Source of the DNA: a virus
Taxonomy: Duplodnaviria; Heunggongvirae; Uroviricota; Caudoviricetes
Reading direction: 5' to 3' (one strand)
DNA: 8,593 bases
IMG/VR virus record: IMGVR_UViG_2744054978_000004
The position numbers were made by a program, and so were the translations under genes. The notes under the pieces are model-generated. The model had not been told where the DNA came from and searched no databases. It saw only the letters and a program-made list of their open reading frames with translations. Each line of letters opens with the position of its first letter. Positions within the stretch are counted from its first letter, which is position 1. Positions 4,470 to 8,593 of the stretch are shown here, in pieces.

Positions 4470-7871
<3,402 letters not shown>

Positions 7872-7889
7872 ATTTTATAACCCAGAACG

Positions 7890-7913
7890 GGCGTCAGAAA
7901 TGACGCCTTTTTT
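7890..7913 (+). terminator. Rho-independent terminator downstream of J
   Basis: GGCGTCA-gaaa-TGACGCC stem-loop (7890-7907) followed by TTTTTT (7908-7913), starting 19 nt after the J stop. Confidence 0.7.
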
Positions 7914-7937
7914 ATTGCAGAAAAGCGAGAGGTAATT

Positions 7938-8537
7938 ATGCGTAAACTTTATGCCGCCATTTTGTCCGCAGCCATTTGTCTGGCCGTATCCGGTGCGCCT
8001 GCATGGGCGTCTGAACATCAGTCCACGCTGAGCGCGGGGTATCTTCATGTCTCGACGAACGTTCCCGGCAGCGATGATCTGAACGGGATTAACGTGAAAT
8101 ACCGTTATGAGTTTACGGACACACTGGGGATGGTGACGTCTTTCAGCTATGCAGGAGACAAGAATCGCCAGCTTACCCGTTACAGCGATACCCGCTGGCA
8201 TGAAGATTCCGTGCGTAACCGCTGGTTCAGCGTGATGGCGGGGCCGTCTGTACGCGTGAATGAATGGTTCAGCGCGTATGCGATGGCGGGTGTGTCTTAC
8301 AGCCGTGTGTCGACTTTCTCCGGGGATTATCTCCGCGTAACTGACAACAAGGGGAAAACGCACGATGTGCTGACCGGAAGTGATGACGGTCGCCACAGCA
8401 ACACGTCTCTGGCGTGGGGAGCTGGCGTGCAGTTTAACCCGACCGAATCCGTGGCCATTGATATTGCTTATGAAGGCTCCGGCAGTGGCGACTGGCGCAC
8501 TGACGGTTTCATCGTGGGTGTCGGTTATAAGTTCTGA
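7938..8537 (+). CDS. lom: Lom-like outer membrane beta-barrel protein (Ail/Lom/PagC/OmpX family), 199 aa, with N-terminal signal peptide
   Basis: GAGAGG at 7927-7932 before ATG 7938. Predicted signal peptide [24 protein letters not shown], cleaved after AWA. Family motifs [23 protein letters not shown] and the C-terminal [26 protein letters not shown] ending in the outer-membrane-protein terminal aromatic residue. Positioned immediately after J, as lom is in lambda. Confidence 0.87.
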
Positions 8538-8563
8538 TTAGCCAGGTAACACAGTGTTATGAC

Positions 8564-8590
8564 AGCCCGCCGTTTCAGGCGGGCTTTTTT
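8564..8590 (+). terminator. Rho-independent terminator downstream of lom
   Basis: AGCCCGCC-gtttca-GGCGGGCT stem-loop (8564-8585) followed by TTTTTT (ending 8590), 27 nt after the lom stop. Confidence 0.75.
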
Positions 8591-8593
8591 GTG

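Follow-up and report, generated by a model that had tools for sequence, protein, structure and literature searches.

A lambda-like lom gene between two predicted terminators in the tail cluster of an E. coli prophage, with a possible role in receptor masking

The lom locus

The window, by which we mean the whole stretch of 8,593 nucleotides of viral DNA that was analysed (IMG/VR record IMGVR_UViG_2744054978_000004), contains the tail-tip/host-specificity gene J (4473..7871) and, starting 66 nt after the J stop codon, the gene lom (7938..8537); both, like all other features described here, lie on the plus strand. J carries six J-specific Pfam domains, including the C-terminal receptor-binding Ig_GpJ_C. 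In a 100%-identical copy in E. coli O111:H8 SF4-1 the genes are, in order, J, Ail/Lom, tail fibre (stf) and tail fibre assembly (tfa), in agreement with an earlier note on this DNA, which had placed lom between structural genes. Lambda has the identical J-lom-stf-tfa layout on the same strand. Lom is encoded by an ordinary lambda-like E. coli prophage gene in its canonical place between J and stf/tfa, and the locus is already known, both as textbook lambda biology and as an allele annotated in thousands of genomes.

The lom open reading frame begins with ATG, comprises 199 codons and a stop, and encodes the precursor of an eight-stranded outer-membrane beta-barrel of the Ail/Lom family. Its product matches Pfam Ail_Lom (PF06316; residues 1-199 on profile positions 1-199, E = 6e-120) with a score of 398.7 bits against a curated cut-off of 23, and PHROG 108, 'Lom outer membrane protein' (E = 8e-110), confirming the family assignment of the earlier note. 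By inspection, residues 1-24 (7938..8009) form a signal peptide with MRK, a hydrophobic core and an A-W-A cleavage motif, followed by S25; this segment is helical in the AF2 model. The C-terminus, ...VGVGYKF, ends in an aromatic residue, which fits a beta-signal. Eight strands are present in the AF2 model (mean pLDDT 66.8, a moderate value, with one of five models good), and the best Foldseek matches of the model are Ail (3QRC, E = 1e-9) and OmpX (1QJ9), with ~30% identity and a TM of about 0.6-0.77. Given the Sec signal peptide, the Ail/OmpX-type barrel and the C-terminal ...GYKF, Lom is expected from its sequence to be exported and inserted in the outer membrane.

Lom shares the Pfam families Ail_Lom / OMP_b-brl with Ail of Yersinia, OmpX of E. 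coli and Rck/PagC of Salmonella. Those genes are chromosomal or plasmid-borne and virulence-associated, whereas the window lom is phage-borne within a tail cluster, and its product has longer L2 and L3 loops. When NCBIfam models NF011777 and NF006917 were scored, Lom stayed below the equivalog cut-offs of both Rck (112.7 versus 258 bits) and OmpX (98.1 versus 176 bits).

A ribosome-binding site (RBS), GAGAGG (7927..7932), was read 5 nt ahead of the lom ATG. It is identical among the window-type upstream variants, with AGAGG kept in one (L136), and it persists even at loci where IS sequence has replaced the upstream DNA; most variants of classes 1 and 3 keep only AGAGG. The 24 nt previously given for the gap between the upstream terminator and the RBS is approximate: ~13 nt separate the end of the T-run (7914) from the RBS (7927), and ~24 nt lead to the ATG. 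We regard the identity and anatomy of the locus, as described here and below, as practically certain.

Comparison with lambda

Lambda Lom (NP_040601, 206 aa; PDB 9WSO chain C) resembles the window Lom in its position between J and stf, its family and its fold. The two proteins are 47% identical (E = 5e-57) and their last 25 residues are the same, which bears out the earlier description of a protein divergent from lambda Lom with a conserved C-terminus. The predicted loops L1-L3, whose boundaries in the moderate-confidence AF2 model are approximate, are 27% identical to those of lambda, as against 61% for the barrel and turns (p = 1e-5), and L1 is 8 residues shorter in the window protein. The N-terminal two-thirds does not correspond to loops as had been supposed, since conserved strands and divergent loops alternate along the chain.

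At the DNA level, a block shared with lambda at ~95% identity (8447..8593) takes in the final ~90 nt of lom and, beyond them, the 3' UTR with the terminator. In the pairwise alignment, identity to lambda falls to about 55-60% upstream of ~8447, and this drop indicates a mosaic joint within lom. The last 31 codons differ from those of lambda at five places, all synonymous, and a further mosaic joint lies 38 nt before the J stop. With one joint inside lom and the other inside J, the exchange unit does not run from terminator to terminator as the picture of an insulated gene would have it. The GC content of lom (55.5%, GC3 62%) is close to that of the window (55.2%) and of J (56.3%, GC3 68%).

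The J genes of the two phages differ in their tips, which are of the LamB type in lambda and of the OmpC type in the window. Residues 713-1132 of the window J match PDB 9wca_J ('A8 gpJ 713') with 925 bits and one mismatch in the last ~170 residues; the tip is near-identical to that of A8 gpJ, which uses OmpC. OmpC is the receptor of A8 (PMC11338833), and PDB 9WCB contains A8 gpJ together with OmpC. A second OmpC-type J tip is that of '1A2'.

Terminators flanking lom

Two hairpins bracket lom. The upstream one (7889..7914) starts 17 nt past the last base of J, not 19 as had been stated, and has the form GGGCGTCA-GAAA-TGACGCCT (7889-7908), an 8-bp stem of seven Watson-Crick pairs and one G-U pair closed by a GAAA loop, followed by TTTTTTATT. 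The downstream one (8564..8591), 26 nt beyond the lom stop, has the form AGCCCGCC-GTTTCA-GGCGGGCT (8564-8585), an 8-bp stem with seven G-C pairs and a 6-nt loop, followed by the T-run TTTTTGTG; in the 100%-identical prophage copy the stf RBS and ATG lie 8-20 nt past it. Between 7000 and 8593, five terminator-like sites were found as compared with 2.2 ± 1.6 in shuffled sequences, and these two hairpins are the strongest of the five, with folding energies of -17.6 kcal/mol (upstream) and -20.5 kcal/mol (downstream) and a z of about -3 for either intergenic stretch. From their GC-rich stems and T-runs, both are predicted to be intrinsic terminators, as the earlier note had proposed.

Each of the four Lom allele classes retains the upstream hairpin, and at three of its eight pairs both bases have changed. 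Paired bases occupy 95% of the cells, a level reached by 2 of 500 shuffles, and sliding the partner strand lowers pairing to 34-59%. The T-run TTTTTTATTG is invariant in classes 0, 1 and 3 with the exception of one variant (L037), while the stem bases vary; lambda (class 2) carries TTTTATT in its place. Like the window, lambda has a hairpin after J, a GAGAGG RBS and a strong terminator before stf, but its upstream hairpin, CGTCCG-GGAA-CGGGCG followed by TTTTATT, is weaker, with a stem of about 5-6 bp instead of 8 bp. The downstream terminator, too, is conserved in lambda, apart from loop and G-U changes.

It could be argued that these hairpins do not insulate a separate transcription unit but serve the long late transcript, mainly as 3'-end or stability elements that keep 3' exonucleases off its J and lom segments once it has been processed. 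Such a role would suit the selection on the upstream structure seen in its compensatory changes, the stable GNRA-type tetraloops (GAAA and GGAA) and the lack of an associated promoter, and Q-modified polymerase would be expected to ignore terminators when lom transcription peaks. Both hairpins nevertheless have the full terminator signature, a GC-rich stem with at least six T directly after it, and an invariant T-run beside a varying stem is what termination predicts and what stability does not need. Stability is hence quite improbable as their main function, and the two roles are not mutually exclusive.

A small AT-rich hairpin, GUAACA-CAG-UGUUAU (8546..8560), lies in the lom 3' UTR inside the conserved mosaic block and is nearly invariant in loci with the same 3' block, lambda included. 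An Rfam search of the whole window at E up to 1 returned no known RNA family; a match to ST7-AS1 lncRNA and one to Trp_leader, the latter on the downstream terminator, were sub-threshold and were set aside as chance. The 'microRNA-size' RNA 24B_1 reported beside lom (PMC4426718) comes from the short-tailed phage phi24B, where lom stands in an unrelated context.

Promoter search and expression

A consensus scan of 7000-8593, which can miss weak or activator-dependent promoters, gave no sigma-70-like site, and a position weight matrix (PWM) scan gave no usable site between the upstream hairpin and the lom RBS, in line with the earlier statement that no promoter could be placed there. Two PWM sites were rejected. 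Transcription from the best one past the hairpin, TTTATT-17-AATTAT (7911-7939), would start within the lom ORF, and the best upstream one (7656-7685) sits in the variable J tip cassette, ahead of the terminator. The conserved TTATAACCC, which some alleles carry as TGTTATAAC, resembles a -10 element but lacks a -35 partner, and it would place the start at the foot of the terminator. With no promoter of its own found and a GC content equal to that of its flanks, the 'self-contained' moron of the earlier note is not borne out.

Published observations on expression concern lambda and phi24B. PR' is described as constitutively active yet terminated without Q (PMC7547250), and lambda lom expression is said to climb sharply late in infection (PMC12366544). 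Prophage expression of lom has been reported for both lambda and phi24B (PMC1151598; PMC4651098), and phi24B lom has been called constitutive and uncoupled from phage regulation (PMC4651098). By analogy with lambda, RNA polymerase modified by Q and coming from the late promoter would pass both terminators during lytic growth, and by this read-through lom would be made in bulk along with J and stf. Unmodified polymerase would be halted at the terminators in the repressed prophage, leaving stf silent, and a weak start may supply a low level of lom. We consider this logic, in which Q-dependent read-through acts late and the terminators act in the prophage, quite probable.

The same material bears on the reading of lom as a lysogenic-conversion moron, with its own constitutive promoter and insulating terminators, whose product would help the bacterium in an animal host by adhesion to epithelial cells and by the kind of serum or macrophage resistance that has been reported for Ail, Rck and PagC. 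Reports that lysogens transcribe lambda lom and that the gene aids adhesion to buccal cells (PMC1151598; PMC3594210; PMC7067206) favour this, as does the description of the phi24B gene as lying outside phage regulation, but the consensus scan of 7000-8593 gave no promoter, and transcription from the top PWM site past the hairpin would begin inside the ORF. The fold and family that Lom has in common with Ail and OmpX count on its side, and the scores below the Rck and OmpX equivalog cut-offs count on the other. Phage HK97, in which stf directly follows J, has no lom, so that lom can be counted as 'extra' DNA, yet its GC content is that of the flanking tail genes. Finally, the sole recently measured phenotype of lambda Lom is phage-specific (PMC12366544). 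Taken with the distribution given below, this makes conversion a rather unlikely explanation for the locus.

As regards the moron concept itself, a promoter of its own and deviant GC mark the textbook case (Juhala 2000; Cumby 2012, PMC3594210), and neither was seen for lom; its base composition (55.5% GC, window 55.2%) is not deviant. What lom does have is a downstream terminator and presence or absence among related phages, being found in lambda and this prophage and lacking in HK97. The J-stf spacer of HK97 holds no remnant of the lom flanks, and consequently no insertion boundaries can be defined. The HK97 morons gp15 and gp22/gp23 (between I and J) are likewise extra, dispensable tail-cluster genes with annotated flanking terminators (PMC3594210).

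Distribution of the allele

The same lom allele is present in 4,705 of 5,426 complete E. coli genomes and in 212 phage records. There is nothing unusual in such a locus, which follows the standard layout of lambda and occurs in most E. coli genomes. Abundance of the allele in EHEC and Stx phages would suit a part in conversion, but it is equally common in commensal and environmental E. coli, which argues against one.

Many database copies of lom are truncated or fused or have 14 residues deleted or duplicated, and IS elements lie directly upstream of the gene at some loci. Together with its dispensability for plaque formation, these features might suggest a functionless passenger of a decaying prophage, kept by a frequently recombining tail-fibre region. 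The window ORF, however, is intact, with its RBS, signal peptide and C-terminal signal; the 90%-identity clusters of the allele comprise 6,993 and 24,859 sequences; the barrel is conserved while the loops diverge between alleles; compensatory change has kept the pairing of the upstream hairpin; and overexpressed lambda Lom has a clear phenotype (PMC12366544). A passenger status is highly improbable on these grounds.

Association of Lom with J

The class of Lom was tabulated against the class of the adjoining J tip at 156 IMG/VR loci. Window-type Lom (at least 96% identical) adjoins at least four J tip classes (0, 2, 3 and 1). J class 1 was found with three Lom classes, Lom class 1 lies mostly beside J class 1, and at the 156 loci lambda Lom occurs only beside the lambda J tip. 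The pairing at these loci is non-random but not one-to-one, and is confounded by linkage and clonality. A strict match of Lom to receptor is not evident, because the same Lom allele adjoins several J tip classes. The phage records with at least 99% identity to lambda Lom are all lambda or its derivatives, and the pairing of lambda Lom with a LamB-type J accordingly amounts to a single observation.

Discussion

The best explanation of the locus as a whole, to which we assign a probability of about 0.55, is a lambda-like lom gene that is expressed by Q-dependent read-through and whose product masks a phage receptor. Lom would act at the cell surface by means of its divergent loops L1-L3. By analogy with lambda, its likeliest job would be to mask the receptor such that sister or superinfecting phages do not adsorb unproductively; for the window Lom the candidate target is OmpC, the receptor that goes with the adjoining J tip. 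The protein may also, or instead, act in adhesion to the host.

Several observations bear on masking. Overexpressed lambda Lom strongly blocks lambda-vir and not T7 (PMC12366544). PDB 9WSO, judging its contents by chain names alone, contains lambda Lom with LamB/maltoporin; in a sequence search LamB matched the partner, and a search of Stf against 9WSO gave no match. lom is not needed for plaque formation, and it adjoins the receptor-binding gene J, as in receptor-masking and exclusion systems. Counting against masking, lambda lysogens, in which Lom is expressed from the prophage, were not protected from lambda-vir in the laboratory (PMC12366544). The adhesion and serum-resistance role put forward in the earlier note corresponds to the classical view of lambda Lom (PMC3594210, PMC1151598), whereas newer data are phage-directed (PMC12366544; 9WSO). 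On balance, masking of a phage receptor by the Lom of this particular allele is a tentative proposal, drawn from the lambda analogy, to which we give somewhat less than even odds.

The position of lom has parallels in other phages. In HK022, cor, a gene for a small envelope protein annotated as an exclusion 'moron', lies in the same place, right after J, and accessory proteins encoded downstream of gpJ in the Drexlerviridae form a pattern comparable to J-lom. The Cor proteins of HK022, phi80 and N15 and Llp of T5 are superinfection-exclusion proteins that block FhuA. They are unrelated to Lom: instead of forming beta-barrels, they are small lipoproteins or proteins of the inner leaflet.

An extension of the masking reading is that Lom alleles are masking modules tuned by their surface loops to the receptor of the upstream J tip, LamB for lambda Lom and OmpC for the window Lom. 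J-lom would then be a tail-tip and exclusion cassette, in which lom, made mainly late by read-through of both terminators, stops progeny from adsorbing to infected or lysing cells. We consider this extension speculative and distinctly unlikely. The combination of an OmpC-type J tip with a Lom carrying non-lambda loops nevertheless makes the locus a convenient natural test of receptor-specific exclusion. If tuned masking were true, the lom copies in EHEC genomes would record competition between phages rather than virulence; and if Lom is a receptor-specific exclusion factor, annotators would have to reconsider the virulence-factor label that lom routinely receives in EHEC and Stx phage genomes.

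The lom gene and its setting

The window spans the distal half of a tail gene cluster of lambda type, whose genes each match their own Pfam family: a partial tape-measure gene H (94-2082), the genes M, L, K and I, and J (4473-7871). The feature under study is the final 722 bases. It contains lom (7938-8537, + strand), which starts with ATG, has a ribosome-binding site (RBS), GAGAGG, five bases 5' of the start, and encodes 199 residues. The product matches Pfam Ail_Lom (PF06316) over its entire length (E = 6e-120, 398.7 bits, cut-off 23) and PHROG 108, 'Lom outer membrane protein' (E = 8e-110). By inspection, residues 1-24, followed by S25, form a typical Sec signal peptide, and the C-terminus (...VGVGYKF) has the aromatic end expected for an outer-membrane barrel. 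An AlphaFold model, for which 17 homologues were used, has eight strands at moderate confidence (mean pLDDT 66.8, one good model of five), and a structure search with it ranks Yersinia Ail (3QRC) and E. coli OmpX (1QJ9) highest. The NCBIfam scores of the product for Rck and OmpX both fall short of the equivalog cut-offs, so it is assigned as a Lom-type member of the Ail/Lom family and as neither of those two proteins, and is predicted from the model to be an outer-membrane barrel.

Inside lom, two copies of a 10-nt direct repeat, TGGTTCAGCG, are spaced by 42 nt (8223-8232 and 8265-8274). Among Lom variants in the databases, 14 residues exactly between the two copies are deleted in P0021 and duplicated in P0014, a change that would remove or add a strand and probably inactivate the barrel. 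Antisense ORFs opposite J (5073-7097, - strand, 674 aa) and lom (7875-8396, - strand, 173 aa) are probably by-products of high GC3 in the sense genes.

Neither the gene nor its setting is new. The stretch 7800-8593 is 100% identical to a prophage beside prfC in E. coli O111:H8 SF4-1, where a side tail fibre gene (stf) lies 64 nt 3' of lom and is followed by a fibre assembly gene, the same order as in lambda. Matches to this stretch occur in 4,705 of 5,426 complete E. coli genomes (median 2, up to 14 copies per genome) and in 212 phage records, CP-1639 and many Stx phages among them; its annotation is Lom or Ail/Lom throughout. The protein clusters of the window allele have thousands of members. 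Taken as a whole, the window shares 97.8% identity with the complete genome that matches it best.

Comparison with lambda Lom

The window Lom is 47% identical to lambda Lom (E = 5e-57). In DNA sequence, the final ~90 nt of lom with its 3' UTR and terminator (8447-8593), and on into the start of stf (12700-12900 in L001, the SF4-1 copy), are about 95% identical to lambda, with few coding differences in lom, all synonymous, whereas lom 5' of about 8447 is 55-60% identical. This drop indicates a mosaic recombination joint inside lom.

Identity to lambda Lom was also mapped on the predicted topology, with extracellular loops at residues 34-48 (L1), 72-95 (L2) and 123-156 (L3). The predicted loops are 27% identical, compared to 61% for the barrel and periplasmic turns (p = 1e-5), or 51% for the barrel when the lambda-like protein tail is excluded (p = 0.006). 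These values bear out the description of divergent loops and conserved strands in the earlier note, but not its split into N- and C-terminal parts, as strands and loops are interleaved throughout the protein.

Terminators and promoter search

The strong terminators reported after J and after lom were both recovered by consensus scan and folding. The upstream hairpin, GGGCGTCA-GAAA-TGACGCCT (7889-7908), is followed by TTTTTTATT, and the downstream hairpin, AGCCCGCC-GTTTCA-GGCGGGCT (8564-8585), by TTTTTGTG. They are the strongest two of five terminator-like sites (2.2 ± 1.6 expected from shuffles), and the two intergenic stretches flanking lom have folding energies of -17.6 and -20.5 kcal/mol (z about -3 each). 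The distances first reported were essentially correct, except that the upstream hairpin starts 17 nt, not 19, beyond J; about 13 nt separate the end of its T-run from the lom RBS. Lambda has the same strong terminator 3' of lom but a weaker hairpin at the J-lom site.

The upstream hairpin was compared across 160 related IMG/VR loci in four Lom allele classes (class 2 being lambda Lom). Its stem occurs as GCGTCA/TGACGC, GCACCA/TGGTGC, GCGCCA/TGGCGC and GCACCT/AGGTGC, followed by TTTTTTATTG in classes 0, 1 and 3 (with the sole exception of locus L037, which has TTTTTTTTG) and by TTTTATT in lambda. Three of the eight pairs vary on both sides (ten distinct variants counted), and 95% of cells are paired, compared to 34-59% with the partner strand slid; the pairing score was equalled in only 2 of 500 shuffles. 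As judged from this alignment, pairing in the upstream hairpin is under selection.

In three IMG/VR loci (L009, L061 and L066), transposase-like ORFs replace the J end directly 5' of lom; L009 has lost the hairpin and retained the lom RBS, and in L066 the junction falls within the hairpin. In some loci of Lom classes 1 and 3 (L100, L115, L123-L125), unrelated sequence takes the place of the conserved block of 3' UTR, terminator and stf, so the right-hand context of lom is not universal.

The earlier note had placed no transcription signal for lom, and this stands: no sigma-70-like site was found in 7000-8593 by consensus scan, and no usable promoter between the upstream hairpin and the lom RBS by PWM scan. 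The best PWM site 3' of the hairpin was rejected because it would initiate inside the ORF. A sigma-70-like site within J (7656-7685, GTGACC-18-TTTAAT) has the sixth-best PWM score window-wide; as a lom promoter it was set aside, lying ahead of the terminator and within the swappable J tip cassette. In the gap that separates the J stop from the hairpin, the motif TTATAACCC (7875-7883) persists in every window-type upstream variant despite differing flanks, and Lom classes 1 and 3 carry TTATTAACCC in its place. TTATAACCC resembles a -10 element but has no -35 partner, and the start it implies would fall at the terminator foot.

Exchange units and proposed expression

The proposal that lom is a moron is partly supported. 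In its favour are the terminator 3' of lom and the presence of the gene in some relatives and not others, HK97 running directly from J to stf. Against it, its composition is not deviant (GC 55.5% for lom, 55.2% for the window and 56.3% for J). The consensus and PWM scans detected no promoter of its own, but a weak or activator-dependent one may escape such scans. Many loci with the window lom allele have another J tip and regain homology at 7833, 38 nt ahead of the J stop. Because joints lie near the J end (7833) and inside lom, the exchanged blocks, as delimited by sequence comparison, do not match a terminator-to-terminator unit. The observation as a whole is confirmed, and its interpretation is supported in part. 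Among the IMG/VR loci, the J stretch 7429-7833 behaves as a swappable cassette, with at least four tip classes accompanying one lom allele.

In lambda, Q renders late transcription from PR' resistant to terminators, so Q-modified polymerase transcribing J should pass both hairpins and run into stf, whose RBS lies just 3' of the second T-run in the prophage copy. Without Q, the first terminator would halt stray transcripts leaving J, and the second would hold stf silent. PR' is described as constitutively active, with its transcripts terminated when Q does not act (PMC7547250). For lambda and phi24B, lysogens are reported to express lom constitutively at a low level (PMC7067206, PMC1151598, PMC4651098), and a sharp rise late in infection is described, via cited ribosome profiling, in PMC12366544.

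J tip and function of Lom

The J tip of the window differs from that of lambda. J residues 713-1132 match PDB 'A8 gpJ 713' (9WCA) with 925 bits and one mismatch in the last ~170 residues, and the receptor-binding tip (7362-7868, J residues 964-1132) is that of A8 gpJ except for one residue. The A8 tip comes from a natural E. coli prophage and was chosen precisely for its use of OmpC in place of LamB (PMC11338833); PDB entry 9WCB contains A8 gpJ with OmpC. Given this match, the window phage probably adsorbs to OmpC.

In the window, an OmpC-type J adjoins a Lom with rebuilt predicted surface loops, which invites the prediction that OmpC is masked by this Lom. Co-variation of Lom and J tip was tabulated over 156 loci. 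The window-type Lom adjoins J classes 0 (44 loci), 2 (the A8 type, 27), 3 (22) and 1 (4), and the 207-residue Lom class 1 adjoins J class 1 in 26 of 27 typed loci. Lambda Lom adjoins the lambda tip only; since all lambda-type Lom records are lambda derivatives, this pairing is a single observation. Overall, pairing across the 156 loci is non-random but clearly not one-to-one, with physical linkage and clonal sampling as confounders.

In the classical view, lambda Lom helps adhesion to epithelial cells (PMC3594210). In a 2025 functional screen, overexpressed Lom gave strong defence against lambda-vir and none against T7, for which the authors proposed superinfection exclusion or avoidance of unproductive adsorption late in infection (PMC12366544). 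Lambda Lom is also present in PDB entry 9WSO (PDB sequence file), which a maltoporin search showed to contain LamB, the lambda J receptor, in a construct as in the J-LamB complex 8XCJ; a Stf query against PDB sequences did not return 9WSO, and a search of one literature library found no paper describing it. For lambda Lom, the lambda-vir defence and the contents of 9WSO point away from the classical adhesion role. Exclusion genes right after J are a known pattern, exemplified by Cor in HK022 and by accessory proteins 3' of gpJ in T1-like phages. We hypothesize, at a probability of about one in five, that J and lom may form a receptor-matched exclusion cassette.
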